40,191 nt of DNA, taken from UHGV virus genome UHGV-1553673; one strand, given 5' to 3'. Position 1 is the first letter of the stretch, and every line of letters begins with the position of its first letter. The translations under genes and the position numbers were made by a program. This document shows positions 5,835 through 40,155 of this stretch, one piece after another. Under the pieces are notes generated by a model, which ran no database searches, was not told the origin of the DNA, and worked only from the letters and a program-made list of their open reading frames with translations. Origin of the DNA: a virus.

Positions 5835-6809
5835 CTATTTGATGTCTTGCGTGTAGCCTGTACCGCAACAGCATGAGCATTGCTCTATTGGCGCGTGAAT
5901 GGTATCCATAAGCGTCGTAAGGAAGTTATCAATCATTTCCTTTAGCTCCCATTCGTTATTGGCTTTGAACCCTTTAATCGCCGTATAACCTTTGTAATTT
6001 TCTTGGTCATGTGTCATTTGGAAAATTTCAATTTCTTTCACCGTGTCAGTCTTAAAGTGCAACTTTGCTCTTTGCTTCTTGGTTCTGGCAAAAATATCCT
6101 GATATGAATATGTGTGAGGCTTAAGGAGCGGTATTATTTTTTTAACGGTAAAGCAAAATGCGTAATCACTTGTTATTCTAGCCAGTTTGTTGTCGATGTT
6201 ATCTTTTACGTGCTGGCGTACAATGTCATACATTTCTTTTGATGAAATTTCACAAGGGCTGTTAGCCCGCAAAGGCTCAGGAATTATGATGCAGTCAACA
6301 AGAGAGTGTTTTACGTTTATGTTTTTTACAACGTACCTCTCCTCCCGGAACCCAACATGCCTAATTGCAGAGTAATTAAATTCTGGTGCGTCACGAAAAT
6401 TTTCAACCTCACATACTAATGTGAATTCAGCGTCAACTGGAGAGGTGTAATCAGGTGCAGTATCGTATTTGTATTCATAAAGAGAGCCTCTGATATCCTC
6501 GTCCACTGCGTCACGCTCATTGTAACTAAGTGTCAAAGGGTATTTTTTACTCTCAAGTTCAGCATCTTTAAGCTCGTAGCGAACATTAATTCTTTCACCA
6601 GAGATAATTCTCTCAACCTTTTCAGGGTAATGTTCAATTTCAAACCAGTTTTTGTGAAAGCTGGCTTTGGGTTTAACTCCGTCAAATAGGAGATCAGCAA
6701 TTTTAGATTGATGGTACTGGTAGTGATAACCGTCCTTTGCTGTGCAATCAGTGATAAAACATTTACCAGCGTCGGTTTTAATAATGCTTATTTGCAATGC
6801 GTTACTCAT
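5835..6809 (-). CDS. Hypothetical 324-aa protein in an AT-rich moron; candidate accessory/defence gene
   Basis: GC visibly lower than the flanks; GGAGG RBS before the ATG at 6809; hairpins flank both ends; cysteine-rich C-terminus CSCCCGTG; no family recognised. Confidence 0.6.
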   Translation of the reverse strand: MSNALQISIIKTDAGKCFITDCTAKDGYHYQYHQSKIADLLFDGVKPKASFHKNWFEIEHYPEKVERIISGERINVRYELKDAELESKKYPLTLSYNERDAVDEDIRGSLYEYKYDTAPDYTSPVDAEFTLVCEVENFRDAPEFNYSAIRHVGFREERYVVKNINVKHSLVDCIIIPEPLRANSPCEISSKEMYDIVRQHVKDNIDNKLARITSDYAFCFTVKKIIPLLKPHTYSYQDIFARTKKQRAKLHFKTDTVKEIEIFQMTHDQENYKGYTAIKGFKANNEWELKEMIDNFLTTLMDTIHAPIEQCSCCCGTGYTQDIK

Positions 6810-6983
6810 ATCTCCTCCAGGCAAAAAGAATGCCCTCACACTGGAGGGCAAAGAAGATTTCCAATAATCAGAACAAGTCGGCTCCTGTTTAGTTACGAGC
6901 GACATTGCTCCGTGTATTCACTCGTTGGAATGAATACACAGTGCAGTGTTTATTCTGTTGTTTATGCCAAAAATAAAGGCCGA

Positions 6984-7607
6984 CTATGCGGCCTCGGAAG
7001 GAAGTCCAATCATCTTATTCAAATCTTCTACCCGTAAAGCAGGAAGTGCTGTACTTGCTTTGTCTGCTTCTTTTGGTAGCAATTCTTTGCTTTCAGGCCA
7101 AACTTCAATAAGTCGCTTAACTGTTGTGACTGAGTTCAAAGCAGCCCATACATTTGATTCGATATCCTTTTTCTTGGCTTCAAGTTTTTGTTGCAATGCG
7201 CAGATTTCATCAAACCTTTTTGTTATTTCGTGTTCTGCGTCAAACATGCATTTATCTTTGGTCGGAGTAGGGAGCAATATATCTTCGCCGTTGCCGTCTT
7301 TCCCATATGAATGCCATCCAACCCTTCTGCCAGATACAGTCAGATAAATTGAAGTAGAACGAACATCGTATGAGTAAAATGAACATCCCATCTTTTCAAG
7401 TTCTTCACTTATAGCTACCAACTTGGATGATAACTGATCCACTTCCTCAGTTTTCTTTTTACCGCCAAACGCAATAACTCTGGCGTCAAGTGCAAGCTGG
7501 TTCTTTAACTTTGTTACTTCTTCAAGTTCAGTGAAAACCCCAGACTTAATTAAAGCGTTACGAGCGATTTCCTCTTTCATTCTCGTAGTTAAGCGGATTG
7601 ATGACAT
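6984..7607 (-). CDS. Hypothetical 207-aa protein (AT-rich region)
   Basis: RBS gagagg before the ATG at 7607; central coiled-coil-like stretch; family uncertain. Confidence 0.5.
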   Translation of the reverse strand: MSSIRLTTRMKEEIARNALIKSGVFTELEEVTKLKNQLALDARVIAFGGKKKTEEVDQLSSKLVAISEELEKMGCSFYSYDVRSTSIYLTVSGRRVGWHSYGKDGNGEDILLPTPTKDKCMFDAEHEITKRFDEICALQQKLEAKKKDIESNVWAALNSVTTVKRLIEVWPESKELLPKEADKASTALPALRVEDLNKMIGLPSEAA

Positions 7608-7672
7608 ATTAATTCCTCTCAAATAAGTGCTTTGCTGCCAAAACAATGAACCATCCGGAAATTCCAGATAGT

Positions 7673-7897
7673 TCATAATTCACTCTTCAATACTTCCAAC
7701 TTACTAATCGCCGATAGATATCCGCGCTGATAGGGCATCATCATTCCTTCGAGCTTGCCACTTCTTAACTCCTCCCTGAGCAATTGTATTGCTTGATCAA
7801 TAACCTCTGCCTTAGCGTCCTTTATGGCTTGCTTGCGGGGCTTTGCTTTCTGCTTTGGCAGATTTCTCAAGCATGATGGAATGTATGTCTGATTCAT
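7673..7897 (-). CDS. Hypothetical small protein (74 aa)
   Basis: Lies directly downstream of the N-like gene on the same strand. Confidence 0.4.
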   Translation of the reverse strand: MNQTYIPSCLRNLPKQKAKPRKQAIKDAKAEVIDQAIQLLREELRSGKLEGMMMPYQRGYLSAISKLEVLKSEL

Positions 7898-7900: not shown

Positions 7901-8173
7901 TTACCTGGCTGTCAGTTGTTTTGATTTCCGGTAGCCTGCCGAGTAAATGGCTACGTTTGGCAGGCAAATACTTCCACTGCATTCTTCTGCCTTCTTGCAG
8001 CGAAGGCTTCCGAGTGATGCTGCTTTGTCTGCTCTGACGCAACCAGAGAGATTTAGCGCAATTTTTCGCGCCAGTGCTTCATTACTGCGTCGCTCGGCAA
8101 TAAGTTCTGCTCTGCGAGCTTTGTAGCGGCTTTTTGCCGTACCTTTGGATTCTTTCCAGACAATGGTTACCAT
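7901..8173 (-). CDS. N-type transcription antiterminator (P22 gene 24-like)
   Basis: Arg-rich motif near the N-terminus (KSRYKARRAELIAERR); C-terminus ...AGYRKSKQLTAR resembles P22 gp24; AAGGAG RBS; nutL immediately upstream. Confidence 0.75.
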   Translation of the reverse strand: MVTIVWKESKGTAKSRYKARRAELIAERRSNEALARKIALNLSGCVRADKAASLGSLRCKKAEECSGSICLPNVAIYSAGYRKSKQLTAR

Positions 8174-8283
8174 GATGGTCTCCTTTAAGTGGCTTTGGCG
8201 CATGACGCGTCGAGGTGCTTATCTTCTCGATCGCTGTCTTGCAGCTGCAATTCGCGCCATCCCCAAAACCACTCAAGTTCTGG

Positions 8284-8323
8284 TCTCAACGGTTAGGTTG
8301 AGAGTCCGTCGATGTTAAAGAGC
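8284..8323 (-). promoter_or_regulatory. nutL: boxA GCTCTTTAACA plus boxB hairpin
   Basis: Minus-strand boxA at 8313-8323 and hairpin TCTCAAC-CTAACC-GTTGAGA at 8284-8303. Confidence 0.7.
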
Positions 8324-8369
8324 CTGCCAATCTGTTCCTTGTGGCGTCTCAGCGTCCTGCTGATGGAAA

Positions 8370-8440
8370 TGATAGTCACATATTGTGATTTAATGGTCAA
8401 TCACAAAATGTGTAAAATAAAGGTGTGACACGTTATGTGT
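8370..8440 (-). promoter_or_regulatory. OL operators and putative pL
   Basis: Repeated ATCACA..TGTG operator-like motifs resembling those at OR; minus-strand TTGACC then a 17-nt spacer. Confidence 0.55.
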
Positions 8441-8650
8441 ATGATTTTTTTGTGTAAATAGTTTTACCCGCGATGGTTTTGCTTACTTAAGTCGGTGACA
8501 ACAGCAGGATGGGTGCTGAAAAGTTCGAAAAACGAGCGAATGGGGTGGTGGCGAGATGGCGGGATATGGGAGTTGTATTAAGAATTATAGTAATTTAATC
8601 AATAGTTTGGACCGGCGGGCAGGTGCTGTCCTGATAGTGATCGGCGGGCA

Positions 8651-8676
8651 ATAAAAAACCCGGCTCGGTGGCCGGA
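8651..8676 (-). terminator. Rho-independent terminator after the cI-linked operon
   Basis: Minus strand CCGGC-caccga-GCCGG followed by GTTTTTTAT. Confidence 0.6.
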
Positions 8677-8685
8677 TTTGCTAAA

Positions 8686-9237
8686 TTACTGACCTTTCTT
8701 AAGGTACAAGTTTATTAGGAAAAATATAGTTGGCATAGCAAGCGAGGCCAGGAGAACCCCGAGCATCCATACTTTTACATCTGCTATCTTGGTTTCCAAA
8801 GCGGAAAATTTAGCTTCAAAGTAGTCAACCGATGGTTTCTTAGATAATGAAGCATCAAAATCCAGGCTCTTCTGTAAAAGTACAGCGGTGTCTCTTTTGG
8901 CGTCAGTAGAATCAGAAGATATTTTCCGGGTATCCTCTTTAATTCCTGCCATGCTGCTCTTGATGTGCGCAACTTCAGCTTCAAGAACTGCTAATCGCTT
9001 ATCCATGTCGTCGCCTCCATCATCACTTGTTGTTTGAATGATCTCAGTATCATCCATCACAACCGATGTGACAATCCGTTTTTCTTTATCTGAAGCAGCA
9101 ACAGAACAAGCTTTCATCAAGAGCGTTGCTTGGCTTGATGCTACAGAAGAAAATTCCAGCCCTACTGTAGAGCCATTCTTATCAGAGTAAGCAATTACTA
9201 GCTTTCCCTCATCCAAAGATGATTGAGCTGCATTCAT
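8686..9237 (-). CDS. Hypothetical 183-aa protein with C-terminal transmembrane anchor; second gene of the cI-linked operon
   Basis: C-terminal hydrophobic helix VWMLGVLLASLAMPTIFFLINLYL; coiled-coil-like middle; GAGGA RBS; starts 6 nt after the upstream stop. Confidence 0.6.
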   Translation of the reverse strand: MNAAQSSLDEGKLVIAYSDKNGSTVGLEFSSVASSQATLLMKACSVAASDKEKRIVTSVVMDDTEIIQTTSDDGGDDMDKRLAVLEAEVAHIKSSMAGIKEDTRKISSDSTDAKRDTAVLLQKSLDFDASLSKKPSVDYFEAKFSALETKIADVKVWMLGVLLASLAMPTIFFLINLYLKKGQ

Positions 9238-9243
9238 CAGCTT

Positions 9244-9525
9244 TTATTCCTCGAACATGCTTTTCAAGGACTGATAGAAATCGAAGGCCTTCTGTTTACT
9301 TAAAGTCACGGACGCAACCTTAGTGCGCTGCATTCCTGCCACTGCGATTTCGCCATTCATATGGCCGATGACAGGGGTGCTATTGAGAAAAACGAAGTTA
9401 AAAACTTCGTAGCCATTGTTATCCGTTCCGATGGTTACAACCCCATCAGCATTAGTTTCAATATAATTTTTGGACTCCAGCACATCATTGATATGTGCTA
9501 AGGTAACTTCTTGTTTATCGCTCAC
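9244..9525 (-). CDS. Hypothetical 93-aa protein; first gene of the cI-linked operon
   Basis: GTG start with AGGAGA RBS 7 nt upstream; lower GC than the flanks. Confidence 0.55.
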   Translation of the reverse strand: MSDKQEVTLAHINDVLESKNYIETNADGVVTIGTDNNGYEVFNFVFLNSTPVIGHMNGEIAVAGMQRTKVASVTLSKQKAFDFYQSLKSMFEE

Positions 9526-9647
9526 TTATGTTCTCCTGAACCAACAAAATAGGTAAAAATCTTTTCAATTTCATTAGATTAATTTGCATAAAAAGAACAG
9601 GGAAAAGTTGGATTACCAGCTATGCGCCGACCAGAACACCTTGCCGA

Positions 9648-10295
9648 TCAGCCAAACGTCTCTTCAGGCCACTGCGCCTTAACTACCTTGCCTATGATGC
9701 GGCAGCTATGGTCGCAATCCAGGGTTCTATATGCCGGGTTTAAAGGTACCAGGTAACTAACCCCTGCATCCTTCTCATACTTCTTGAACGTTGCCTCTGA
9801 ATCACCATTTGCAGAAGCCACGCAGAAATCCCCAGACTCTACCGGCTCAGCCGGATCAACGAGTATCAGCATGCCTTCCGGAAAACTTGGACGAACCCCC
9901 TGAGGCGCCGTCATTGAATGCCCCTTCACCTCAAGCCAGAAAGCTTTTTCGCTGGCTTTTGTGGTCGTTGGGACCCATGCCTTTGCATCGCTGGCTGTGT
10001 AGCTTCCCACCTCCGAAAATGGCCCGGCCTGCACTGAAGAAAATAACGGGTATTCATATTGGCGAAATACGGCGTCTGAATCCTCGCCAAACATTATTTT
10101 TGCCGGAGATACGCCGAGTGCCGCCCCAAGAACCAGCGCGTCATCCGCGCTAACCTTTCTTGTTCCTAACTCGTAGTTCCCCAGGCGTGAAGGCGCAGCC
10201 CAGCCGCAAAGCTTGGCCAATTGAGCCTGGCTAAGTCCTTTAGCTTCTCTAAGGGACTTTATCCTTTCCCCGATAATTTCATGCATCGTTTTCAT
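9648..10295 (-). CDS. cI: CI/C2-type prophage repressor (HTH + S24 LexA-like peptidase domain)
   Basis: N-terminal XRE HTH ([11 protein letters not shown]); C-terminal GHSM...KK autocleavage motifs; divergent from cro. Confidence 0.9.
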
Positions 10296-10299
10296 CCCT

Positions 10300-10380
10300 T
10301 AAATGTAACACGCAACGTGATTGAACTCTGTACACGAATTGAGGTTGACTGTTAATCACAAATTGTGTGTAATGGGTGTG
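10300..10380. promoter_or_regulatory. OR operators with pR and pRM
   Basis: TTGACT (10345-10350), 17-nt spacer, TGTAAT (10368-10373); operator-like AATCACAAATTGTGTG overlaps. Confidence 0.6.
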
Positions 10381-10403
10381 TGATTAATGCTAGGGAGACC
10401 GCA

Positions 10404-10622
10404 ATGAACAAAATTGCCCAGCAGCGAAAAAAAATCGGAGTTTCGCAAGCTGTACTAGCTTCGGCAATTGGTTGGGGGCAATCCCGCATCGCCAACTATG
10501 AGCTGAATATCCGTACTCCTGGCCTTAACGATTGCCGAATGATCGTAGAAGGCCTCAGGAAGTTAGGGTGCCAATGTTCTTTGGATGATGTTTTCCCTCC
10601 ATCCAGTAACAAAGCCGCCTAA
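10404..10622 (+). CDS. cro: Cro-like HTH regulator
   Basis: XRE-family HTH (IGVSQAVLASAIGWGQSRIANYE); AGGGAG RBS; divergent from cI. Confidence 0.8.
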   Translation: MNKIAQQRKKIGVSQAVLASAIGWGQSRIANYELNIRTPGLNDCRMIVEGLRKLGCQCSLDDVFPPSSNKAA

Positions 10623-10630
10623 GCAGTACC

Positions 10631-10672
10631 CGCTCTTTAACAGTCATGGCCTTTCACCTCTAACCGGGTGAG
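10631..10672 (+). promoter_or_regulatory. nutR: boxA CGCTCTTTAACA plus boxB hairpin
   Basis: boxA at 10631-10642; hairpin tcaccTCTAACCgggtga with the same CUAACC loop as nutL. Confidence 0.7.
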
Positions 10673-10739
10673 CAAACATCAGCGGCAAATCCATTGGGTG
10701 TGCCGCTATAACTCAATATCAATATAGGAAAATTAACAA

Positions 10740-11036
10740 ATGGCACAAGCAAGCTACAGCAAGCCAACACAGCGAGAAATTGATCGCGCTGAAACTGATT
10801 TACTCATCAACCTGTCAACGCTTACCCAGCGCGGTCTGGCAAAGATGATTGGCTGTCATGAATCGAAGATAAGCAGAACGGACTGGAGATTTATTGCTTC
10901 GGTCTTGTGTGCTTTCGGAATGGCATCAGACATCAGTCCGATTAGCAGGGCTTTTAAGTATGCGCTTGATGAAATCACAAAGAAAAAATCCCCGGCCGCC
11001 ACCGAGGATTTTAAGCAAATTGATATGCAATTCTGA
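10740..11036 (+). CDS. cII: CII-like transcriptional activator
   Basis: C-terminus ...[18 protein letters not shown] resembles lambda CII ...KKRPAATERSEQIQMEF. Confidence 0.8.
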
Positions 11037-11068
11037 GGGAATTACTGGATCAATCCACAGGAGTAATT

Positions 11069-11215
11069 ATGACAAAACAACTCAGTCCTTACCAGGACAA
11101 AATTCACAAACACATACTACGTGATCGCTTCCTGTCCAGCTTCAAGCAGCCTGGTCGATTCCGGGCTGAGTTGGAAAAGGTGAAGCTGATGCAGAAGGAG
11201 AAAGGTCATGAGTAA
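11069..11215 (+). CDS. Hypothetical small protein (48 aa)
   Basis: AGGAG RBS 7 nt before the ATG; below the ORF-track cutoff; a similar small ORF sits here in P22. Confidence 0.4.
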
Positions 11216-12107
11216 CATATCTAATCTAGCCGAAGCCAGAGAGGCCAGAAGGCTACAACAACCGCATCAAAGCAGCGGTAAGGGGTATGCCTTGCTGCAC
11301 CGTAAAATTATGGATGTGCCGTTTTACAAGGATGCAGAAGCAGCGCATCTGTGGGTTCACTTAATCCTCAAAGCAAAGCATACGCCTGAGTATGTAATGA
11401 CTGACGCAGGAGAAATTCTGGTAGGCAGAGGGAAGCTACTTGGCGGTAGAAACTCTCTGGCGTTTGAAACAGGACTCAAACCAGATCGCGTTCAGTACCT
11501 GCTTAGAAAGTTCAAAAAACTCGGCATGATTGACTGGGTTTCACACGGTAAATTCTCAGTTTTCTCGGTAGAGAAATATGACGATTATCAGTCAAATTTT
11601 GTACCAGCAGATTACCAGCAAATTACCACCTCAAAGCCAGCAATACCAATGCCTGTAAGCAATACTGTACCAGCAGATTACCAGCAAATTACCACAGATA
11701 AAGAATATAATAATATTATCTCTAATACTGACGTATTAGAGAGTGCCACAGTAGACAAAAAGTCTGACAAGAAAAAACCTTCCGTTAGCTGTCAGGATGT
11801 TGTCGATGCTTACCACGAAATCCTTCCTGAAGCGCCAAAAATCCGCGCACTGAATGACAAGCGTAAAAACCAGATCCGAACGTTCTGGCGCAAAGCCGGA
11901 GTGATAACCCGCCAGCTTGACGGGCATGGGTTCACGATGCAGGACTGGAGAAATTATTTGATCTACGTAGGCGAAAATTGCCGATGGATGTTCGAAGAAC
12001 GCCCAAACCATCAACGCGGAACCGTCTGGCACAAAAAGGGATTTGATTTCCTGCTTAACGACAATACCTACCTGAAAGTTCGTGAGGGTGAACACGATGA
12101 CCGATAA
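11208..12107 (+). CDS. Replication initiator protein (lambda O / P22 gp18-like)
   Basis: Position before the helicase gene; iterons inside the coding sequence; AAGGAG RBS. Confidence 0.75.
11601..11740. repeat. Origin of replication: iterons plus AT-rich segment
   Basis: 29-nt direct repeat gtaccagcagattaccagcaaattaccac at 11601-11629 and 11667-11695 (four CAGCARATTACC units), followed by AT-rich 11701-11740. Confidence 0.7.
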
Positions 12108-13533
12108 TTTTTATGCGCCGCCCCATAGCATCGAGGCAGAGCAGGCGGTGATTGGTGGATTGCTTCTGGATGATGACAGCAGTGAGCGCGTCCAGAAAGT
12201 TCTGGCGATGCTGAAGCCCGATTCATTTTACAGCCGACCACACAAAATCCTTTTCGAAGAAATAACCAGAATGCACCGGGAGCAAAAGCCAGTAGATGGC
12301 CTGACGCTTTTCGATGAACTGGAGCGTAAATCGTTAACGGCGTCTGTTGGCGGTTTTGCTTATATCGCTGAGATCGCAAAGAACACGCCGAGCGCCGCAA
12401 ACATCGTTGCCTATGCAATGCAGGTTCGCGAAACCGCAATGGAACGCTACGCCATCAACCGCATGACTGAAGCGACGGAATTGCTCTATTCCCGCAACGG
12501 AATGACTGCAACGCAGAAGTACGAAGCTATTCAGGCGATTTTCACGCAACTGACAGACCATGCAAAAACCGGATCGCGTCGAGGCCTTCGCTCATTTGGT
12601 GAGGTCATGGAAGACTGGGTTAGCGACCTTGAGAAGCGATTTGACCCGTCAGGCGAACAACGAGGAATGAGCACAGGGATCCCATCTCTGGACAGGATGC
12701 TGTCACCGAAAGGTCTGGTGAAAGGCTCTCTGTTCGTCATTGGCGCTCGCCCTAAGATGGGGAAAACGACGCTATACAGCCAGATGGCAATCAACTGCGC
12801 AGTGCATGAGAAAAAGCCCGCTCTGATGTTCAGTCTTGAAATGCCAGGCGACCAGATACTGGAAAAGCTGGTAGGACAGAAGTCAGGTGTTAACCCGAAT
12901 ATTTTTTACCTTCCGGCGACAAATGACGCTGATGACGGCTATCAGGGTGATTACGATGGTGACTTCAACAGGGCGATCGAAACAGCCAATCGCTTGAGTG
13001 AAATCGACCTGCTTTACATCGACGACACGCCGGGATTATCTCTGGCTCAAATCGTCAGCGAAAGCCGTCGAATCAAGCGAGAAAAAGGATGTGTTGGCAT
13101 GATTCTGGTCGATTACCTGACACTAATGACCGCTGAGAAGGCCGATCGCAACGACCTTGCTTACGGCATGATCACCAAAGGACTGAAGAACCTTGCCAAA
13201 GAGCTTGATTGCGTTGTTGTGCTTCTGACACAGCTTAACCGCGCACTGGAAAGCCGAACCAATAAACGCCCATTACCAAGTGACTCACGAGATACAGGGC
13301 AGATTGAACAGGATTGCGATTATTGGGTGGGGATCCATCGTGAAGGCGCTTTTGATGACAGCGTTCCTCCTGGTGAAACCGAACTAATCCTTCGCCTCAA
13401 TCGTCATGGCAATACCGGCACGGTGTATTGCATTCAGGCAAATGGCGCTATTTATGACACAGACCAACAGTCTGCTGAAATGCGCCGCCGTGAACGCGAG
13501 GAACCGCAGTCCAAGAAGAAAGGAGGATTCTGA
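12097..13533 (+). CDS. DnaB-family replicative helicase (P22 gp12-like)
   Basis: Walker A GARPKMGKT and DnaB-type motifs; ATG at 12097 overlaps the end of the initiator gene. Confidence 0.9.
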   Translation: MTDNFYAPPHSIEAEQAVIGGLLLDDDSSERVQKVLAMLKPDSFYSRPHKILFEEITRMHREQKPVDGLTLFDELERKSLTASVGGFAYIAEIAKNTPSAANIVAYAMQVRETAMERYAINRMTEATELLYSRNGMTATQKYEAIQAIFTQLTDHAKTGSRRGLRSFGEVMEDWVSDLEKRFDPSGEQRGMSTGIPSLDRMLSPKGLVKGSLFVIGARPKMGKTTLYSQMAINCAVHEKKPALMFSLEMPGDQILEKLVGQKSGVNPNIFYLPATNDADDGYQGDYDGDFNRAIETANRLSEIDLLYIDDTPGLSLAQIVSESRRIKREKGCVGMILVDYLTLMTAEKADRNDLAYGMITKGLKNLAKELDCVVVLLTQLNRALESRTNKRPLPSDSRDTGQIEQDCDYWVGIHREGAFDDSVPPGETELILRLNRHGNTGTVYCIQANGAIYDTDQQSAEMRRREREEPQSKKKGGF

Positions 13534-13561
13534 TGACCATCTACATCACTGAGCTAATAAC

Positions 13562-13594
13562 AGGCCTGCTGGTAATCGCAGGCCTTTTTATTTG
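13562..13594 (+). terminator. Rho-independent terminator (tR2-like) before the nin region
   Basis: Perfect 8-bp stem AGGCCTGC/GCAGGCCT followed by TTTTTATTT. Confidence 0.7.
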
Positions 13595-13609
13595 GGGGAG
13601 AGGGAAGTC

Positions 13610-14113
13610 ATGAAAAAACTAACCTTTGAAATTCGATCTCCAGCACATCAGCAAAACGCTATTCACGCAGTACAGCAAATTCTTCCAGACCCAACCAAAC
13701 CAATCGTAGTAACCATTCAGGAACGCAACCGCAGCTTAGACCAGAACCGAAAGCTTTGGGCTTGCCTTGGTGACGTCTCTCGTCAGGTTGAATGGCATGG
13801 TCGCTGGCTGGATGCAGAAAGCTGGAAGTGTGTGTTTACCGCAGCATTAAAGCAGCAGGATGTTGTTCCTAACCTTGCCGGGAATGGCTTTGTGGTAATA
13901 GGCCAGTCAACCAGCAGGATGCGTGTAAACGAATTTGCGGAGCTATTAGAGCTTATACAGGCATTCGGTACAGAGCGTGGCGTTAAGTGGTCAGACGAAG
14001 CGCGACTGGCTCTCGAATGGAAAGCGCGATGGGGAGACGGGCTGCATGACTATCAAATCAAATACGCCAGCACACGACAAGGACTGCTGGCAAACGCCGC
14101 TTTGGCTTTTTGA
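13610..14113 (+). CDS. ninB: NinB (Orf) recombination protein
   Basis: Matches lambda NinB as I recall it (MKKLTFEIRSPAHQQNAIHAVQQILPDPTKPIVV...); 3' end differs and overlaps the next gene. Confidence 0.85.
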   Translation: MKKLTFEIRSPAHQQNAIHAVQQILPDPTKPIVVTIQERNRSLDQNRKLWACLGDVSRQVEWHGRWLDAESWKCVFTAALKQQDVVPNLAGNGFVVIGQSTSRMRVNEFAELLELIQAFGTERGVKWSDEARLALEWKARWGDGLHDYQIKYASTRQGLLANAALAF

Positions 14114-14573
14114 TGCACTGGATATTGAGTTTGGATTCTGGCTGGATTCGGCAGCGAGCGACAAAAATGCTCTGTGCGCTCACTGGTTAACTGAGGCCGA
14201 CGACGCGCTAAATTCTGAGTGGATAAGCCACGGTGCAATCTGGAATAACCCACCGTACAGCAATATCAGGCCGTGGGTGGAAAAAGCCGCTGAGCAGTGC
14301 ATACAACAGCGACAGACGGTAGTTATGCTTGTGCCAGAGGATATGTCAGTCGGATGGTTCAGCAAGGCTCTGGAGAGTGTCGACGAAGTTCGCATTATCA
14401 CTGATGGACGGATTAATTTTATCGAACCATCGACAGGGCTGGAGAAGAAGGGAAACAGCAAAGGCTCCATGCTGCTGATTTGGCGACCGTTCATCAGTCC
14501 TCGACGGATGTTTACTACCGTATCCAAAGCGGCATTGATGGCGATCGGGCAGGGCGTCAGGAGGGCGGCATGA
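14046..14573 (+). CDS. DNA N6-adenine methyltransferase (phage Dam-like)
   Basis: NPPY catalytic motif ([10 protein letters not shown]); GGAGA RBS before the ATG at 14046. Confidence 0.75.
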
Positions 14574-14746
14574 GGCGACAGCGACGAAGTTTCACCGACA
14601 TCATCTGCGAAAACTGCAAATACCTTCCAACGAAACGCTCCAGAAATAAACGCAAGCCAATCCCAAAAGAATCTGACGTAAAAACCTTCAACTACACGGC
14701 TCACCTGTGGGATATCCGGTGGCTAAGACATCGTGCGAGGAAATGA
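14570..14746 (+). CDS. ninE: NinE
   Basis: [23 protein letters not shown]... matches lambda NinE; ATGA overlap with the methylase stop. Confidence 0.85.
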
Positions 14747-15108
14747 CAATGGATTATTCACAGTTAAGTGATTTTGAAATTAACGTGGCGGTATTCGAAG
14801 CCATTCATAACGGATCACCGGATTACAAAGAAGGTGAGAATGGCGATATGGTGTTTGTCTCATTTGAGGGAGACATTGTAAACGGAGACGCAGTTGAAGT
14901 AGAAGTTGAGCGCGGATCCTTTAACCCATGCGCAAACCCAGCAGACGCATGGCCGATTATTGAAAAATACAGGATTAGCATTATCAATCTCGATGAAGAC
15001 GAGTGGGGTGCACGCGGTGTGGCCTACTGTAAATCTAAGCGAGCTATACATGAAAATCCCCTCCGCGCCGCCATGATTGTCTTTCTCATGATGCAGAGAA
15101 TCCAATAA
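14743..15108 (+). CDS. NinX-like protein
   Basis: Position between ninE and ninF; [21 protein letters not shown] resembles NinX-type proteins. Confidence 0.5.
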
Positions 15109-15284
15109 TGCTTAGCCCATCCCAATCCCTTCAATACCAGAAAGAAAGCGTCGAGCGAGCTTTAACGTGCGCTAACTGCGGTCAGAAGCTGCATGTGCTT
15201 GAAGTTCACGTGTGCTCCGATTGCTGCGCAGAACTGATGAGCGATCCGAATAGCTCAATGTACGAGGAAGAAGACGATGGCTAA
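15108..15284 (+). CDS. ninF: NinF
   Basis: Translation [36 protein letters not shown]... matches lambda NinF; below the ORF-track cutoff. Confidence 0.8.
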
Positions 15285-15888
15285 ACCAGCGCGAAGACGA
15301 TGTAAAAACGAAGAATGTCGGGAATGGTTTCACCCTGCATTCGCTAATCAGTGGTGGTGCTCTCCAGAGTGTGGAACCAAGATAGCACTCGAACGACGAA
15401 GCAAAGAACGCGAAAAAGCGGAAAAGGCAGCAGAGAAGAAACGACGACGAGAGGAGCAGAAACAGAAAGATAAACTTAAGATTCGAAAACTCGCCTTAAA
15501 GCCCCGCAGTTACTGGATTAAACAAGCCCAACAAGCCGTAAACGCCTTCATCAGAGAAAGAGACCGCGACTTACCATGTATCTCGTGCGGAACGCTCACG
15601 TCTGCTCAGTGGGATGCCGGGCATTACCGGACAACTGCTGCGGCACCTCAACTCCGATTTGATGAACGCAATATTCACAAGCAATGCGTGGTGTGCAACC
15701 AGCACAAAAGCGGAAATCTCGTTCCGTATCGCGTCGAACTGATTAGCCGCATCGGGCAGGAAGCAGTAGACGAAATCGAATCAAACCATAACCGCCATCG
15801 CTGGACTATCGAAGAGTGCAAGGCGATCAAGGCAGAGTACCAACAGAAACTCAAAGACCTACGAAATAGCAGAAGTGAGGCCGCATGA
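15277..15888 (+). CDS. ninG: NinG (Rap) recombination-associated protein
   Basis: Matches lambda NinG from memory. Confidence 0.85.
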
Positions 15889-16091
15889 CGTTCTCAGTAA
15901 AAACCATTCCAGACATGCTCGTTGAAGCATACGGAAACCAGACAGAAGTAGCACGCAGACTGAAATGTAGTCGCGGTACGGTCAGAAAATACGTTGATGA
16001 TAAAGACGGGAAAATGCACGCCATCGTCAACGACGTTCTCATGGTTCATCGCGGATGGAGTGAAAGAGATGCGCTATTACGAAAAAATTGA
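15885..16091 (+). CDS. ninH: NinH
   Basis: 68 aa, matches lambda NinH from memory. Confidence 0.8.
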
Positions 16092-16734
16092 TGGCAGCAA
16101 ATACCGAAATATTTTGGTAGTTGGCGATCTGCACGGATGCTACACGAACCTGATGAAAAAACTGGAGACGATAGGATTCGACACCAAAAAAGACCTGCTT
16201 ATCTCAGTGGGCGATTTGGTTGATCGCGGTACAGAGAACGTCGAATGCCTGGAATTAATCACATTCCCCTGGTTCAGAGCTGTACGTGGAAACCATGAGC
16301 AAATGATGATTGATGGCTTATCAGAGCGTGGAAACGTTAATCACTGGCTGCTTAATGGCGGTGGATGGTTCTTTAATCTCGATTACGACAAAGAAATTCT
16401 GGCTAAAGCTCTTGCCCATAAAGCAGATGAACTTCCGTTAATCATCGAACTGGTGAGCAAAGATAAAAAATATGTCATCTGCCACGCCGATTATCCTTGT
16501 GACGAATACGAGTTTGGAAAACCAGTTGATCATCAGCAGGTAATCTGGAACCGCGAACGAATCAGCAACTCACAAGACGGGATCGTGAAAGAAATCAAAG
16601 GCGCGGACACGTTCATCTTTGGTCATACGCCAGCAGTGAAACCACTCAAGTTTGCCAACCAGATGTATATCGATACCGGCGCAGTGTTCTGCGGAAACCT
16701 CACATTGATTCAGGTACAGGGAGAAGGCGCATGA
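16069..16734 (+). CDS. Ser/Thr protein phosphatase (lambda PPase / NinI-like)
   Basis: Metallophosphatase motifs GDLHG, GDLVDRG, GNHE; start at MRYYEKIDG. Confidence 0.9.
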
Positions 16735-17354
16735 GACTCGAAAGCGTAGCTAAATTTCATTCGCCAAAAAGCCCGATGATGAGTGACTCACCACGGGCCA
16801 CGGCTTCTGACTCTCTTTCCGGTACTGATGTGATGGCTGCTATGGGGATGGCGCAATCACAAGCCGGATTCGGAATGGCTGCATTCTGTGGTAAGCACGA
16901 ACTCAGCCAGAACGACAAACAAAAGGCTATCAACTATCTGATGCAATTTGCACACAAGGTATCGGGGAAATACCGTGGTGTGGCAAAGCTCGAAGGAAAT
17001 ACTAAGGCAAAGGTACTGCAAGTGCTCGCAACATTCGCTTATGCGGATTATTGCCGTAGTGCCGCGACACCGGGCGCAAGATGCAGAGATTGCCACGGTA
17101 CAGGCCGTGCGGTCGATATTGCCAAAACAGAGCTGTGGGGGAGAGTTGTTGAGAAAGAATGCGGAAGATGCAAAGGTGTCGGCTATTCAAGAATGCCAGC
17201 AAGCGCCGCATATCGCGCTGTAACGATGCTAATCCCAAACCTTACTCAACCCACCTGGTCACGCACTGTTAAGCCGCTGTATGACGCTCTGGTGGTGCAA
17301 TGCCACAAGGAAGAGTCAATCGCAGACAACATTTTGAATGCGGTCACACGTTAG
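16731..17354 (+). CDS. Q: Late-gene antiterminator Q
   Basis: 207 aa, matches lambda Q from memory; followed by pR'. Confidence 0.9.
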
Positions 17355-17396
17355 CAGCATGATTGCCACGGATGGCAACATATTAACGGCATGATA

Positions 17397-17425
17397 TTGA
17401 CTTTTTGAATAAAGTTGGGTAAATT
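17397..17425 (+). promoter_or_regulatory. Late promoter pR' with qut region
   Basis: TTGACT (17397-17402) and TAAATT (17420-17425) in the arrangement I recall for lambda pR'. Confidence 0.7.
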
Positions 17426-17460
17426 TGACTCAACGATGGATAAATGCACTCGTTAAATAA

Positions 17461-17490
17461 AGCCCTGAGTTAATAGCTCGGGGCTTTTTG
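17461..17490 (+). terminator. Candidate tR' terminator ending a short pR' transcript
   Basis: Hairpin AGCCCTGAG / CTCGGGGCT followed by TTTTTG, about 30 nt after the predicted start. Confidence 0.55.
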
Positions 17491-17787
17491 CGTTTTAAGC
17501 ACGGCCTTTCTGAAAGCACATCAAACCAAATACCAGACAGACAAAAATAATCACCTTATCCGCTGTGGCTACGGTGCGGTGTGCTTTGCATAAAAGAAAA
17601 CCAGCTCAATGGCTGGCTTCGTGAAAGCGGGTGGCAAGAGGTTGCGCTAACAACCTCCTGCCGTTTTTCCCGTGCATATCGGTCACGAACAAATCTGATT
17701 ACTAAACACAGTAGCCTGGATTTGTTCTATCAGTAATCGACCTTATTCCTAATTAAATAGAGCAAATCCCCTTATTGGGGGTAAGAC

Positions 17788-18111
17788 ATGAAGATGCCAG
17801 AAAAACATGACCTGTTAGCCGCCATTCTCGCGGCAAAGGAACAAGGCATCGGGGCAATCCTTGCGTTTGCAATGGCGTACCTTCGCGGCAGATATAATGG
17901 CGGTGCGTTTACAAAAACAGTAATCGACGCAACGATGTGCGCCATTATCGCCTGGTTCATTCGTGACCTTCTCGACTTCGCCGGACTAAGTAGCAATCTC
18001 GCTTATATAACGAGCGTGTTCATCGGCTACATCGGTACTGACTCGATTGGTTCGCTTATCAAACGCTTCGCTGCTAAAAAAGCCGGAGTAGAAGATGGTG
18101 GAAATCAATAA
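17788..18111 (+). CDS. S: Holin S (class I) with dual-start Met1-Lys2-Met3
   Basis: [39 protein letters not shown]... matches lambda S107. Confidence 0.95.
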
Positions 18112-18571
18112 TCAACGTAAGGCGTTCCTCGATATGCTGGCGTGGTCAGAGGGAACAGATAACGGACGACAGAAAACCAGAAATCATGGTTATGACGTCA
18201 TTGTTGGCGGAGAGCTATTCACTGATTACTCAGATCACCCTCGCAAACTTGTCACGCTAAACCCAAAGCTCAAATCAACAGCCGCCGGACGTTACCAGCT
18301 TCTTTCACGTTGGTGGGATGCCTACCGCAAGCAACTTGGCCTGAAAGACTTCTCTCCCAAAAGCCAGGACGCAGTGGCATTGCAGCAGATTAAAGAGCGT
18401 GGCGCTTTACCGATGATTGATCGCGGTGATATCCGTCAGGCTATCGACCGTTGCAGCAATATCTGGGCTTCACTGCCGGGGGCTGGTTATGGTCAGTTCG
18501 AGCATAAGGCTGACAGCCTGATTGCAAAATTCAAAGAGGCTGGCGGAACGGTCAGAGAGATTGAGGTATGA
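18095..18571 (+). CDS. R: Endolysin R (lytic transglycosylase)
   Basis: 158 aa, matches lambda R from memory. Confidence 0.95.
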
Positions 18572-19035
18572 GCAGAGTAACCGCGATTATCTCCGCTCTG
18601 GTTATCTGCATCATCGTCTGCCTGTCATGGGCTGTTAATCATTACCGTGATAACGCCATCGCCTACAAAGAACAGCGAGATAAAAAAGTCAGTGAGCTGA
18701 AGCAGGCGACCGCCACCATTACTGACATGCAGCAGCGCCAGCGTTCTGCTGATGCACTCGATGCTAAATACACGAAGGAGTTAGCTGATGCGAAAGCTGA
18801 AAATGATGCTCTTCGGCGTAAGCTTGATAATGGTGGTCGGGTGCTCGTCAAAGGAAAATGCCCTGTGCCATCCTCAGCCGAAACCTCCAGCGCCTCCGGC
18901 ATGGGCAATGATGCCACCGTCGAACTCTCTCCAGTTGCTGGACGAAACGTTCTCGGTGTCCGGGACGGAATTATCCGCGACCAAACAGCACTGAGAACGC
19001 TTCAGGAATACATCAGGACGCAATGCCTTCGATGA
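18568..19035 (+). CDS. Rz: Spanin inner-membrane subunit Rz
   Basis: N-terminal TM helix [26 protein letters not shown] as in lambda Rz. Confidence 0.9.
18788..18994 (+). CDS. Rz1: Spanin outer-membrane lipoprotein Rz1, embedded in Rz in the +1 frame
   Basis: Lipobox VVGCSS and a proline-rich stretch; fully contained within Rz. Confidence 0.85.
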
Positions 19036-19339
19036 TAGCGATAATTTTACTCATCATCCTTCACATCTGGCTCTGTAGACAGGGTGGTGATCACTTCTGG
19101 AGTGAATCCAGATTAAACATCTCATTGCTGATGCTTGATATTGAGCATCTTGCGCGCGGTAAGGGGCTGCGTTGAGATAAGAGCCAGTCATTACAAATAC
19201 CAGGATTTAGCCTCGCATTCGCGGGGCTTTTTATAGCCATTACAAAAGCCACTCCCTACAGAGTGGCTTTGATAATGGCTTATACCCTGCACGGGATAAC
19301 TTAACTGATATCCCTTTTAACGGATAAACGGAGCCAACA

Positions 19340-19582
19340 ATGGCAGAGATTATTCCCATGACTGAAGAACAGAAATTCCAGTTAGAGATTTATAAACTGG
19401 TCATGAACCAGAACGCAGCCGCAGAGGAAGCATTTCAATTCATTGGCACTGACGAGCTGAAGCTTGAGCTATTCAAAATTCACTTCCAGTCAGGCGGCGC
19501 TAATTCAGATATCACGACCAGAACTATCGAAGCGGTGCGTAAATCGAAGGAAGCGTTAGACCTGTTCACTACCGGAGCATGA
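19340..19582 (+). CDS. Hypothetical protein (80 aa) upstream of the small terminase gene
   Basis: Position equivalent to the small ORF before gene 3 in P22-like phages. Confidence 0.5.
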   Translation: MAEIIPMTEEQKFQLEIYKLVMNQNAAAEEAFQFIGTDELKLELFKIHFQSGGANSDITTRTIEAVRKSKEALDLFTTGA

Positions 19583-19611
19583 TGCTCAACCTGAAATAAC
19601 AACTAAGTGAG

Positions 19612-20106
19612 ATGAATATGGCAGCACCAAAGGGCAACCGATTTTGGGAAGCCCGCAGTAGTCATGGGCGAAATCCTAAATTCGAATCGCCTGAGGCGCT
19701 GTGGGCTGCTTGTTGTGAATACTTCGAGTGGGTGGAAGCTAACCCGCTATGGGAGATGAAGGCATTCTCGTATCAGGGTGAAGTGATACAAGAGCCTATC
19801 GCCAAGATGCGAGCGATGACTATTACCGGCCTCACTCTGTTCATTGATGTGACGCTTGAAACATGGCGCACATATCGCCTGCGAGAAGATTTATCTGAAG
19901 TCGTTACGCGAGCAGAGCAGGTCATCTACGACCAGAAATTCTCTGGCGCAGCCGCTGACCTTCTCAACGCTAACATCATCGCCCGTGATTTGGGCCTCAA
20001 AGAGCAGTCGCAAGTTGAAGACGTGACACCTGATAAGGGAGATCGCGATAAGCGACGCTCTCGTATCAAGGAGCTATTCAACCGTGGAACTGGACGCGAT
20101 TCTTGA
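19612..20106 (+). CDS. Terminase small subunit (P22 gp3-like)
   Basis: Immediately precedes the large terminase gene; sequence [22 protein letters not shown]... resembles P22 gp3 as I recall it. Confidence 0.8.
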
Positions 20107-21583
20107 TAACCTGAGCGACGAAGAGCAAATCGAATTGCTCGAGCTACTCGAAGAAGAAGAGAACTACCGGAACACACACCTGCTATATGAATTTACGCCA
20201 TACAGCAAACAGCGTGAGTTCATCGACGCCGGGCATGACTATCCAGAGCGCTGTTTTATGGCTGGTAACCAGCTTGGTAAGTCATTTACTGGTGCTGCTG
20301 AAGTAGCGTTTCACCTTACAGGGCGTTATCCGGGCACAAAAGGCTATCCTGCTGATGGTAAATATGGCGGTGAGTGGAAAGGTAAGCGTTTTTATGAGCC
20401 TGTTGTCTTCTGGATTGGTGGCGAGACAAACGAGACTGTAACCAAAACGACTCAACGCATCCTGTGCGGTCGTATTGAAGAGAATGATGAACCGGGCTAC
20501 GGTTCAATACCGAAAGAGGACATCATTAGCTGGAAGAAGTCTCCTTTCTTTCCGAACCTTGTTGATCATCTTCTGGTTAAGCATCACACGGCTGATGGCG
20601 TTGAAGATGGCATTTCAATCTGCTACTTCAAACCATACTCGCAAGGCCGCGCTCGCTGGCAGGGTGACACAATCCACGGCGTGTGGTTTGACGAAGAGCC
20701 ACCATACAGCATTTATGGCGAAGGTCTTACCCGTACCAACAAATACGGGCAATTCTCAATTCTGACGTTTACCCCGCTGATGGGGATGTCTGACGTTGTT
20801 ACCAAGTTCCTGAAGAATCCCAGCAAGTCGCAGAAAGTGGTCAACATGACCATCTATGACGCTGAGCACTACACCGACGAGCAGAAAGAGCAAATCATCG
20901 CATCCTATCCTGAGCATGAGAGAGAGGCGCGTGCTCGCGGTATTCCTACGATGGGTAGTGGTCGAATCTTCCAGATACCGGAAGAGACAATTAAGTGTCA
21001 GCCGTTCGAGTGTCCTGATCACTTCTACGTAATTGGCGGGATGGATTTCGGATGGGATCACCCACAGGCGCAGGTTCAGCTTTGGTGGGATAAGGACGCA
21101 GACACAATCTACGTTTCACGCGTGTGGAAGGCGAAAGAAAAAACAGCCGTTCAGGCATGGGGAGCCGTTAAATCATGGGCGCATAAAGTGCCAACCGCAT
21201 GGCCTCATGACGGAAACCAGCATGAGAAGGGCGGCGGTGAGCAGCTCAAAGGGCAGTATGCCGACGCTGGTTTTATGATGTTGCAGGAGCATGCGACATG
21301 GCCTGATGGCGGTAATGCTGTTGAGCCTGGCATCACTGAATTGCGCGACATGATGCTTGATGGTCGCTTCAAAGTATTCAACACCTGTGAGCCATTCTTT
21401 GAGGAGTTTCGCCTCTATCACCGTGATGAAAACGGGAAAATCGTCAAGCTTAACGACGACGTGCTATCCGCCGTTCGCTATGCATACATGATGCGCCGCT
21501 TCGCAAAAATGATGCGCGACATCAAAAAACCAAAAGAGAAAAAGATACCAGCCCCAATCAGGCCCATCGCACGGAGAACTTAA
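20084..21583 (+). CDS. Terminase large subunit (P22 gp2-like)
   Basis: 499 aa; GTG start with AAGGAG RBS; ATPase and nuclease domain architecture. Confidence 0.9.
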
Positions 21584-26758: not shown

Positions 26759-28176
26759 TGCCTATTCAGCAACTTCCGCTTATGAAAGGTGTCGGCAAAG
26801 ACTTCCGAAACGCCGACTATATCGACTATCTGCCAGTGAATATGCTGGCAACCCCCAAAGAAATCCTGAACAGCAGCGGATATCTTCGCTCATTCCCGGG
26901 CATTGCCAAGCGTTCTGATGTGAACGGTGTATCTCGCGGCGTTGAGTACAACATGGCGCAGAGTGCTGTTTATCGCGTGTGTGGTGGGAAGCTCTACAAA
27001 GGAGAAAGCGAAGTCGGTGACGTCGCCGGAAGTGGTCGCGTATCAATGGCGCATGGTCGGACATCACAGGCTGTAGGCGTTAATGGTCAACTGGTCGAGT
27101 ATCGCTATGATGGCACGGTTAAAACCGTCTCAAACTGGCCTACAGATAGCGGATTCACTCAGTATGAGTTAGGTTCGGTTCGTGACATTACGCGCTTGCG
27201 CGGGCGTTATGCGTGGTCAAAAGACGGCACTGATTCATGGTTTATCACTGACCTTGAAGACGAATCACATCCTGACCGTTACAGCGCACAATATCGTGCC
27301 GAGTCTCAGCCTGACGGCATCATCGGCATCGGAACATGGCGAGACTTCATCGTCTGCTTTGGTTCATCGACGATTGAATATTTCTCCCTGACTGGTGCAA
27401 CCACCGTTGGTGCTGCTTTGTATGTCGCACAGCCATCACTGATGGTGCAGAAAGGCATTGCCGGGACTTACTGCAAAACTCCGTTCGCCGATTCGTATGC
27501 GTTCATCAGCAATCCGGCAACGGGTGCGCCGTCTGTATACATCATCGGCTCCGGTCAGGTATCACCAATCGCCAGCGCGAGCATTGAGAAAATACTACGC
27601 TCCTACACTGCTGATGAACTGGCTGATGGCGTGATGGAATCGTTGCGGTTTGATGCTCATGAGTTGCTGATTATTCACCTGCCGCGCCATGTTCTTGTTT
27701 ACGACGCATCTTCAAGCGCCAATGGTCCGCAATGGTGTGTGTTGAAAACAGGCCTGTATGACGATGTGTACCGCGCAATCGACTTCATTTACGAAGGCAA
27801 TCAGATAACGTGCGGCGATAAGCTGGAGTCCGTGACCGGGAAATTGCAGTTCGATATCAGCAGCCAGTATGGGCTACAGCAAGAACACCTGCTGTTTACT
27901 CCGTTGTTCAAAGCGGATAACGCCAGGGTGTTTGACTTTGAGGTTGAATCGTCAACTGGCGTTGCGCAGTACGCCGACCGCCTTTTTCTCTCTGCAACCA
28001 CTGACGGAATCAATTACGGACGTGAGCAGATGATTGAGCAGAATGAACCGTTCGTTTACGACAAACGCGTTTTGTGGAAGCGAGTCGGGCGCATCAGGAA
28101 AAATGTCGGCTTCAAATTGCGCGTTATCACGAAGTCACCTGTCACTCTGTCAGGCTGCCAGATAAGGATTGAGTAA
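26758..28176 (+). CDS. Tail accessory protein (P22 gp10-like)
   Basis: 472 aa, same length and position as P22 gp10. Confidence 0.8.
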
Positions 28177-29024
28177 TGGCGGATTCGAATCTCAATGTTC
28201 CGGTAATCATTCAGGCTACACGACTCGACACATCAGTACTTCCACGCAATATCTTCTCGCAGTCGTATCTGCTTTACGTTATCGCACAGGGTACTGATGT
28301 TGGTAATGTGGCGAACAAGGCCAACGAGGCCGGACAGGGCGCTTATGACGCACAAGTCAGGAACGATGAGCAGGATGTGATTCTCGCTGACCATGAGCAG
28401 CGAATTTCTGCTGCGGAAGCAACGCTTGTTAATCATGAGGAGCGAATCAGCCAGGCAGAATCAACTCTTCAGGACCATGAAACGCGAATCGCTCAGAATG
28501 AAAGCGATATTGCGTCGCTTGATACCAGAGTTCAGTCGCTGGAGTTGCAGGTTTCAGACCATGAAACGCGCATTGATGCTCTGGAGTATGCCACTACTCG
28601 CAAAAAGTCAGAGGTTGTTTACTATGGCGTATCTGTAACCATCCCGACAGCGCCGACCAACCTTGTTAGCCTGCTGAAAACGCTCATGCCGTCATCCGGC
28701 ACGTTGGCACCATTCTTCGATACCGTTAACAACAAGATGGTTGTGTTCAACGAGAACAAAACCTTGTTCTTCAAGCTGTCGATCGTCGGGACGTGGCCCA
28801 GCGGAACCGCCAACAGGTCAATGCAGCTAACCTTTTCCGGCTCTGTTCCTGACACACTGGTTAGCAGTCGTAATGCGGCGACAACAGCCGACAACATCCT
28901 GTTAGCTACGTTCTTCAGCGTGGATAAAGACGGATTTCTTGCCACAAATGGCAGTACGTTAACCATCCAGTCAAATGGTGCGGCGTTTACTGCCACAACC
29001 ATCAAGATAATCGCGGAGCAGTGA
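28176..29024 (+). CDS. Tail needle (P22 gp26-like) with C-terminal knob domain
   Basis: Conserved N-terminus [18 protein letters not shown]..., heptad coiled coil ([10 protein letters not shown].. repeats), 282 aa. Confidence 0.85.
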
Positions 29025-33916: not shown

Positions 33917-34047
33917 CCTTGATGCCTCACCAGTTGGGTGGAATGGCATCGTAACCTACTGGATAAATACTCAATAGTACCATTTCGGTATGCAATCACA
34001 TCATGGTTGCATCATATCATTCGTCTGGAGCAATGAAATGTCAGATA

Positions 34048-34548: not shown

Positions 34549-34570
34549 TATTTTCTCCGGAATGTTTATT

Positions 34571-40140: not shown

Positions 40141-40155
40141 TGGTGTCCCCTGCAG
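40141..40155. repeat. att core copy inside the tRNA 3' end (integrase-proximal)
   Basis: Exact 15-nt repeat of 442-456. Confidence 0.7.

Follow-up and report, generated by a model that had tools for sequence, protein, structure and literature searches.

How the late-control and lysis region of the virus genome UHGV-1553673 was put together is the question raised by its positions 13610-19035, where a run of nin genes leads into the late antiterminator gene Q, the late promoter pR' and the lysis genes S, R, Rz and Rz1. The whole 40,191-nucleotide (nt) stretch was analysed and is called the window here. A sequence-only reading of it had seen a lambda-type nin/Q/lysis cassette joined to P22-type immunity, packaging and head genes, with a candidate terminator tR' so near to pR' that the leader RNA would be much shorter than the 6S RNA of lambda. 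Is the region a cross between lambda and P22, and is its leader out of the ordinary? With a probability of about 0.92, our comparisons favour a plainer answer to both, namely that the region is the standard early-right, late-control and lysis part of a lambdoid prophage, formed by the exchange of gene-sized modules and not by a lambda x P22 cross, and that its short leader is the usual one.

The window was aligned as DNA to lambda (L001) and P22 (L002) and scored in 50-nt steps, and protein identities to both phages were taken from tblastn. This whole-prophage alignment, which had been suggested as a check, showed the mosaicism to be real and allowed its breakpoints to be mapped. The ninB segment (13532-14049) is 96.9% identical to lambda and 91.7% to P22; the Dam methylase segment after it (14050-14576) corresponds to neither and is 97-99.5% identical to HK97, 434, SfI, Sf101 and HK544. 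The ninE segment (14577-14743) is about 97% identical to both lambda and P22, the NinX-like gene with the start of ninF (14744-15141) is 54-94% identical to P22 and absent from lambda, and ninF-ninG DNA (15142 to about 15700) is about equally close to the two. The 3' end of ninG, ninH and ninI (15700-16730) match lambda only, and Q (16731 to about 17390) matches both phages, with a protein that is lambda's. The pR' spacer, the early transcribed region and the terminator (about 17390-17500) are P22-like (100% over 17400-17449 and 96% over 17450-17499, the spacer and early transcribed region being 88% identical to lambda). From 17617 to 18815, the S leader, S, R and the 5' part of Rz are again lambda DNA, mostly at 92-100% per 50 nt, with 78-80% within the 5' part of Rz (18650-18749). 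HK620, mEp460 and Ayreon are 96-98% identical to the next segment (18816-19325), which holds the rest of Rz, Rz1 and a 50-amino-acid (aa) open reading frame (ORF). Further right on the plus strand, orf80, the small terminase gene gp3 and the 5' part of terL (19326-20950) are 94-99% identical to P22, with a gp3 protein identical throughout. After the first ~870 nt of terL, identity to P22 drops to ~70-80%, the level of the remaining virion genes, and the alignment thus places a recombination breakpoint inside terL at about 20950.

Because lambda and P22 share most of the nin region and Q (ninB, ninE, ninF, the 5' part of ninG and Q are common to both at 90-98% DNA identity), the two stretches at 15700-16730 and 17617-18815 are alone diagnostic of lambda. 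The individual genes, all on the plus strand, show the same. A ninA-like small ORF (13533-13610) is 92% identical to P22 NinA, and the product of ninB (13610-14113), the Orf recombination mediator, matches its lambda counterpart at 99.3% over aa 1-143. A Dam-family N6-adenine methyltransferase gene of the HK97/434/Sf101-type allele (14046-14573; PF05869) stands in place of lambda ninC/ninD, and is followed by ninE (14570-14746; 96.6% P22, 92.9% lambda) and by the NinX-like gene (14743-15108; PF10765), whose product is 49% identical to P22 NinX. The first 34 nt of ninF (15108-15284), at its 5' end, are non-lambda, lambda-type DNA being back at 15142, and the NinF protein is nearer to P22 (96.6%) than to lambda (84.9%). 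There follow ninG/rap (15277-15888; 98.5% lambda), ninH (15885-16091; 100% lambda), the Ser/Thr phosphatase gene ninI (16069-16734; 96.8% lambda, without a P22 counterpart) and Q (16731-17354), whose product equals lambda Q at all 207 aa (100%) and is 97.1% identical to P22 gp23; PF03589 is listed for the gene identical to this Q on L048. The earlier impression of near-identity to lambda thus stands for NinB, NinG, NinH, NinI, Q, S and R (97-100%), but it fails for Rz, Rz1 and the P22/HK97-type pR' spacer and early transcribed region, and in part for NinF. Likewise, the mosaicism was correctly seen, but the two-parent picture was not, as Dam, the NinX-like gene, the spacer, the Rz 3' part with Rz1, and immC come from neither parent. 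The O and helicase genes also match neither lambda nor P22, and are 95-99% identical to other phages.

The leader can be examined in the same way. A promoter scan gave one sigma-70 promoter, pR' (17397-17437, plus strand), with the -35 element TTGACT at 17397-17402, a 17-nt spacer that bears both P22/HK97-type substitutions, and the -10 element TAAATT at 17420-17425. Alignment with the late RNA start of the P22 record (37887) places the putative +1 at 17432, so that the -10-like pause element AACGAT, which does not vary among the window, P22, HK97, HK620, Emek and lambda, occupies 17432-17437 (+1 to +6). As had been noticed, a candidate tR' begins only about 30 nt beyond the start; it is predicted as an intrinsic terminator (17459-17496, plus strand) with a hairpin of 13 pairs, 6 of them G-C, at 17459-17487 (+28 to +56), followed by TTTTTGCGTTTT (given by the terminator scan as TTGCGTTTT directly 3') with U tracts to +65. 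No other terminator was found by the plus-strand scan of 17200-17900, from Q to S. RNA from +1 to +69 folds at -23.3 kcal/mol (z = -4.1 against shuffles), and the terminated leader is predicted to be about 60 nt long. With a hairpin about 30 nt past +1 and the sequence AAAGCCCTGAG...CTCGGGGCTTTTTGCGTTTT, this is a leader of the P22/HK97 type, set in a lambda-type Q module in which a lambda-family Q lies just upstream, a sigma-70 promoter is accompanied by AACGAT, and an intrinsic terminator precedes the lysis genes.

Lambda-type sequence gives way to the P22 type between 17389 and 17403, within the -35 region, and in the transcribed part the window departs from lambda from +9 on. Lambda homology ends at 17454 (lambda 44609) and returns at 17617 (lambda 45015); the intervening 405 bp of lambda (44610-45014), which hold the body of the 194-nt 6S RNA and orf-64, are replaced here by 162 bp that include the short-leader terminator, and no homologue of lambda 44610-44780 is present between the pause site and tR'. 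The same alignment puts the lambda start at 44587 and its terminator U tract near 44780, and so reproduces the known 194-nt 6S RNA. The gap between Q and S is 433 nt in the window and 434 nt in P22, compared with 676 nt in lambda. Across 17390-17530, HK620 is identical to the window, HK97 is identical but for one extra base just upstream of the putative +1, and Emek differs at two bases; the hairpin and T tract are identical in HK97 and Emek, and P22 differs in the loop alone. Downstream, the non-coding spacer (17500-17616, plus strand) is 95-99% identical to HK97, HK022, HK544, mEp phages, Sf101 and Emek and 62-74% identical to P22, without a match in lambda. Separately, we noticed that lambda 44866-44952, downstream of the lambda tR' and missing in the window, is 83% identical to tRNA-region sequence of large virulent phages, and that phage Kapi1 carries tRNA-Thr and tRNA-Asn genes at the equivalent position; this piece of lambda may be a remnant of a tRNA gene.

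The predicted leader is indeed much shorter than the lambda 6S RNA (about 60 versus 194 nt), but it is no departure from the norm, because the P22 record annotates it, HK97 and HK620 carry it, and the short form occurs in 81 records of the phage collection against 24 for the lambda long form (records with at least 80% query coverage). Moreover, the same leader is directly preceded in HK97, HK620 and Emek by a Q gene that their records label lambda-like, and the combination of a lambda-type Q with this Q-utilization (qut) sequence is thus common. P22 gp23 and lambda Q are interchangeable. We therefore read the short late leader as the common P22/HK97 form and the 194-nt 6S RNA as the less common one, a minority form among phages with lambda-type Q. 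Short pR' RNAs of lambda, 21, phi80, 82 and P22 are cited in PMC7547250, which dates the report of the P22 one to 1976.

The closest overall parallel is the published Sf6-like Shigella phage Sf101 (NC_027398), which has the same order of ninA, ninB, dam, ninE, a ninX-like gene, ninF, ninG, ninH, ninI, Q, short leader, S/S', R, Rz/Rz1 and a small ORF, and is 98-99% identical in DNA over 13533-14784 and 15055-18684, the nin-Q-S-R block. It differs in its NinX-like gene (14785-15054 gave no megablast match), in having another allele of the Rz 3' part and Rz1, and in an intact ninB; it also integrates at sbcB, whereas the prophage in the window lies at argW (PMC4159516). HK544 shares the late leader at 98.6%, and HK97 and HK022, siphoviruses with unrelated virion genes, share 17425-17640 at 95.4%. 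P22 resembles the window in promoter, pause element, terminator, Q-holin gap and the orf80/gp3/terL 5' part, but it has another Q allele and gp19 in place of the lambda R endolysin, lacks ninI and dam, has head genes that are only ~70-80% identical and carries an immC of unrelated type. With lambda the window shares NinB, NinG, NinH, NinI, Q, S with its dual start and upstream sequence, R, and the -35, -10 and AACGAT elements; unlike lambda, it lacks ninC/ninD, has the extra NinX-like gene, and differs at 44610-45014 and in the Rz 3' part and Rz1.

These comparisons bear on a rival origin for the prophage, a recent direct cross between lambda and P22 (or phages very close to them) that would have set a lambda nin/Q/lysis cassette into a P22 backbone. 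The 95-100% identity of 15142-17454 and 17617-18815 to lambda would fit such an event, as would the P22 match from 19326 to about 20950 with its fully conserved gp3. However, most of the nin region and Q is common to the two phages anyway, Sf101, HK544 and HK97 outmatch lambda across the block, the head genes are too far from those of P22 (~70-80%), and Dam, the NinX-like gene, 17500-17616, the Rz 3' part and Rz1, immC, O and the helicase belong to neither parent while being 95-99% identical to other phages. A recent cross is therefore extremely improbable, and gene-sized module exchange among lambdoid phages remains our preferred explanation, in which each module is a known one, represented in some sequenced phage at 95-99% identity. 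Such mosaicism is well known: the Sf101 paper describes the nin and lysis layout in a highly mosaic genome (PMC4159516), and P22-like phages in general are characterized likewise in the epsilon34 paper (PMC2629481). The stakes beyond annotation are accordingly low, as the result is a breakpoint map for one more mosaic lambdoid prophage with an arrangement already known.

Several points weigh against a wholly standard region with a usual short leader. The exact combination of modules is new, as the phage and complete Escherichia coli genome collections contained no identical record for the window, the best covering 92% of 13000-20000 at 97.4%. Furthermore, +1 and the termination point of this prophage rest on homology and fold prediction, and annotators have disagreed about the hairpin: the HK620 record, the only one to dissent, names the homologous region 'qut' and places the late terminator 'tQ' about 650 bp downstream. 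The +28 hairpin could accordingly be a part of the Q-utilization site that terminates inefficiently, with an effective tR' further downstream and a leader that is not short. We consider this quite unlikely, given that tR' is annotated at +31 to +59 in P22 and the same hairpin is labelled a terminator in Emek, that the 13-pair stem with its following T-rich tract folds far better than shuffled sequence, that no further terminator-like site was seen on the plus strand between Q and S, and that a short late-promoter RNA of P22 has been reported, as cited in PMC7547250.

A different doubt concerns the altered 3' end of ninB, where one nucleotide, the A of lambda's GAC-A-GGG, is missing between 14038 and 14039. 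The deletion puts the last three codons out of frame, and reading continues to 14113, giving a 167-aa product with a 24-aa foreign tail and an overlap of 68 nt with dam, whose ATG is at 14046. In lambda, P22 and every close relative, the ninB TGA overlaps the ATG of the next gene (ATGA), and this overlap is lost in the window. An assembly or sequencing error would account for this, the true phage then having a standard NinB of 146 aa, with a stop codon that overlaps the start of dam. In favour of an error, the extra base is present in all relatives in the phage collection (among the 40 matches listed, all align 182 bases to the 181 of the window; HK97 is 99.5% identical across the ninB-dam junction apart from this deletion), and an intact ninB 21-mer occurs on 39 viral contigs, whereas a 34-mer of the deleted form had no exact match in the genome contigs of the species-representative collection or in the viral contigs. 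A 20-mer of the deleted form matched no enterobacterial genome in the species-representative collection; its sole match there, a Rhodospirillales metagenome-assembled genome, is attributed to chance. The missing A, however, lies outside any homopolymer run, and five contigs of public assemblies encode exactly this 167-aa NinB; of these, the one shown (Logan ERR528744) matches positions 11294-17113 of the window (5,820 bp) at 100% identity. Because the exact protein recurs on these contigs, we judge an error unlikely and read the deletion as a real, lineage-private mutation rather than a recombination junction. The sequence-only reading was right about the overlapping Dam-type methylase: Dam is intact, with a PF05869 match of 218 bits against a cut-off of 28.1 that covers profile positions 1-167 of 169, and GGAG stands upstream of its ATG. 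A 174-aa minus-strand ORF (14180-14704) that is listed among the genes of the Logan contig was dismissed as a shadow of dam, for which the Pfam match is decisive.

By homology with lambda and P22, we infer the following late control. The pR' promoter would be constitutive, and the -10-like AACGAT element would cause RNA polymerase to pause at about +16/+17; in the absence of Q, termination would follow at the hairpin and U tract between +28 and +65, leaving the leader of about 60 nt. Once N had allowed transcription to pass through the nin region, the early-right operon would supply Q, which would bind between the -35 and -10 elements and render the paused polymerase resistant to the terminator. 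Read-through would then yield S107/S105, R, Rz/Rz1, both terminase subunits, and the P22-like head, ejection and tailspike proteins. The antisense promoter paQ within Q seems likewise to be conserved, as its CII box TTGCGAGCACTTGC (paQ/a23; 17018-17031, minus strand) has exactly the sequence that is annotated in P22.

A further possibility is that the leader (17432 to about 17492), if made constitutively in lysogens, acts in trans as an Hfq-type small RNA (sRNA) on host or phage targets. Its layout, with unpaired A/U-rich sequence ahead of a terminator hairpin that ends in U residues, would suit such a role, and StxS, the sRNA from the pR' leader of Shiga-toxin phages, which does act in this way, is likewise a short constitutive lysogen transcript from an antiterminated late promoter, but it belongs to a different Q/qut family from the P22/HK97-type leader (PMC7547250). 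No Rfam family covers the leader, a permissive scan of 17300-17850 returned one chance-level match (NsiR1, E = 0.56), and our searches found no support for the idea, which we regard as highly doubtful. If true, the function would extend to a large group of prophages, as the leader is present in HK97, HK022, P22, Sf101 and dozens more.

The lysis genes, all on the plus strand, combine a lambda cassette with foreign spanin alleles. The S holin/antiholin gene (17788-18111; 99.1% lambda) opens with ATG-AAG-ATG, the dual start M1-K2-M3 that had been recognized from the letters, and the 170 nt before it are lambda-type. The R endolysin gene (18095-18571) is 98.7% identical to that of lambda, and P22 gp19 as a query found no match in the window. 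The i-spanin gene Rz (18568-19035; PF03245) is lambda-type to 18815 and HK620/mEp460-type beyond, and its product is only 61.7% identical to lambda Rz overall because lambda DNA homology ends there. Embedded in it is the o-spanin gene Rz1 (18788-18994; PF06085, lipobox VVGC), a non-lambda allele that shares the first few codons with lambda Rz1 and then diverges. An embedded two-component spanin thus accompanies the dual-start holin and R-type endolysin, although its alleles are not those of lambda.

As a whole, the 40,191 bases are a complete P22-like prophage of the Sf6/HK620/Sf101/IME10 group in the E. coli tRNA gene argW. A 15-bp att core repeat, TGGTGTCCCCTGCAG, lies at 437-451 with host DNA (1-436) on its left, and its direct copy (40143-40157) falls in the feature at 40143-40191 (minus strand), which adjoins the integrase gene and also holds the 3' part of argW. 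The Rfam tRNA match there (40144-40191) is cut off by the end of the window, and its letters read as tRNA-Arg(CCU), that is, argW. In E. coli chromosomes, bases 1-436 come after cscB, the sucrose transporter gene of the csc locus. The IntS-like tyrosine integrase (38798-40015, minus strand) has Arm-DNA-bind_3 (P4-type arm-binding) and Phage_integrase domains, and a TorI-type xis, a 66-aa ORF annotated torI in E. coli genome records, lies at 530-730 (minus strand). Location of int and the excisionase gene at opposite prophage ends is the mark of the KplE1/Sf6/HK620-type argW recombination module, and the window shows it in full: int beside argW, a TorI-type excisionase at the other end, and direct att repeats. 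A circularly permuted virion genome was also considered, because int lies beside the tailspike/oac end, but the presence of att repeats, of argW and of host csc DNA at the flank rules it out. Among phage records, those closest to the window are IME10, Sf101, HK544, mEp234, Sf6 and phiv205-1. At gathering thresholds, an Rfam search of the whole window returned the argW fragment alone; a tRNA-Ala(CGC) called by ARAGORN inside cI (10015-10097, minus strand) has no Rfam tRNA support and is probably a false positive.

The virion genes are P22-like in content and order (gp3, gp2, gp1, gp8, gp5, gp4, gp10, gp26, gp14, gp7, gp20, gp16 and tailspike), and their products are 33-100% identical to those of P22, with a PF09008 Head_binding domain present. 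P22 pac specificity is probable in this phage. The P22 likeness earlier assigned to Erf (74.6%), portal (77.4%), coat (72.9%) and the tailspike N-terminus (70% over aa 1-117) holds, and scaffold is 84.9% identical, but for N (37.6%) and Mnt (50%) it holds only at the level of the family. The tail needle (28176-29024, plus strand) joins a P22 gp26-like N-terminus (59% over aa 1-137) to a C-terminal Sf6-type knob (PF16532). The tailspike (34562-36745, plus strand) is also a chimera: residues 1-117 form a P22 head-binding domain, tail fibre proteins of Shigella phage DS8 and Escherichia phage HK2 match residues 134-726 at 74% identity, and a Peptidase_S74 intramolecular chaperone domain lies at the C-terminus. 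Between the tailspike gene and int, a 595-aa fused AT3-SGNH acyltransferase (36838-38625, minus strand; phrog_6705, O-antigen acetylase) is probably the product of a serotype-conversion gene.

The immunity region does not bear out the P22 type that had been proposed. DNA from N through cI and cro to cII (about 7905-11080) is 99% identical to VT1-Sakai, an Stx1 phage, and to phiSTEC801-Stx1a, and partly to mEpX1; the cI product is closer to lambda CI (48% identity) than to P22 C2 (39%), and immC is thus of the VT1-Sakai/mEpX1 type rather than of P22 specificity. The N antiterminator gene (7901-8203, minus strand) encodes an arginine-rich motif, GTAKSRYKARRAELIAER, which we take to be of the phage 21 type, and its likeness to P22 gp24 lies in the C-terminal third alone. 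Nor is P22 immI present, as arc and ant had no tblastn match in the window and only a Mnt homologue was found (within 33656-34590, minus strand; Arc and Repressor_Mnt domains, PF03869 and PF11423). Adjoining it, in the slot before the tailspike gene, is a homing endonuclease-like HNH-AP2 ORF (34048-34590, minus strand). PADLOC, run on ten early-left and immunity proteins, gave a weak homing-endonuclease match for the HNH ORF alone.

A few further observations concern the early regions. A 356-aa protein of the early-left operon (5835-6905, minus strand) matches the Gabija anti-defence protein Gad1 (PF25705, 226.8 bits; phrog_20113), and beside it the ORF at 6984-7676 (minus strand) carries an Nmad5 nucleotide-modification-associated domain (PF18757, 242.7 bits). 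Two ORFs between N and cI (8686-9237 and 9244-9525, minus strand; phrog_12602), in the position of lambda rexAB and common to VT1-Sakai, had no Pfam or PADLOC match and could be prophage-expressed exclusion genes. Finally, two identical 30-bp direct repeats (11600-11629 and 11666-11695), seen as secondary BLAST hits, lie in the O-like replication gene and are probably origin iterons.

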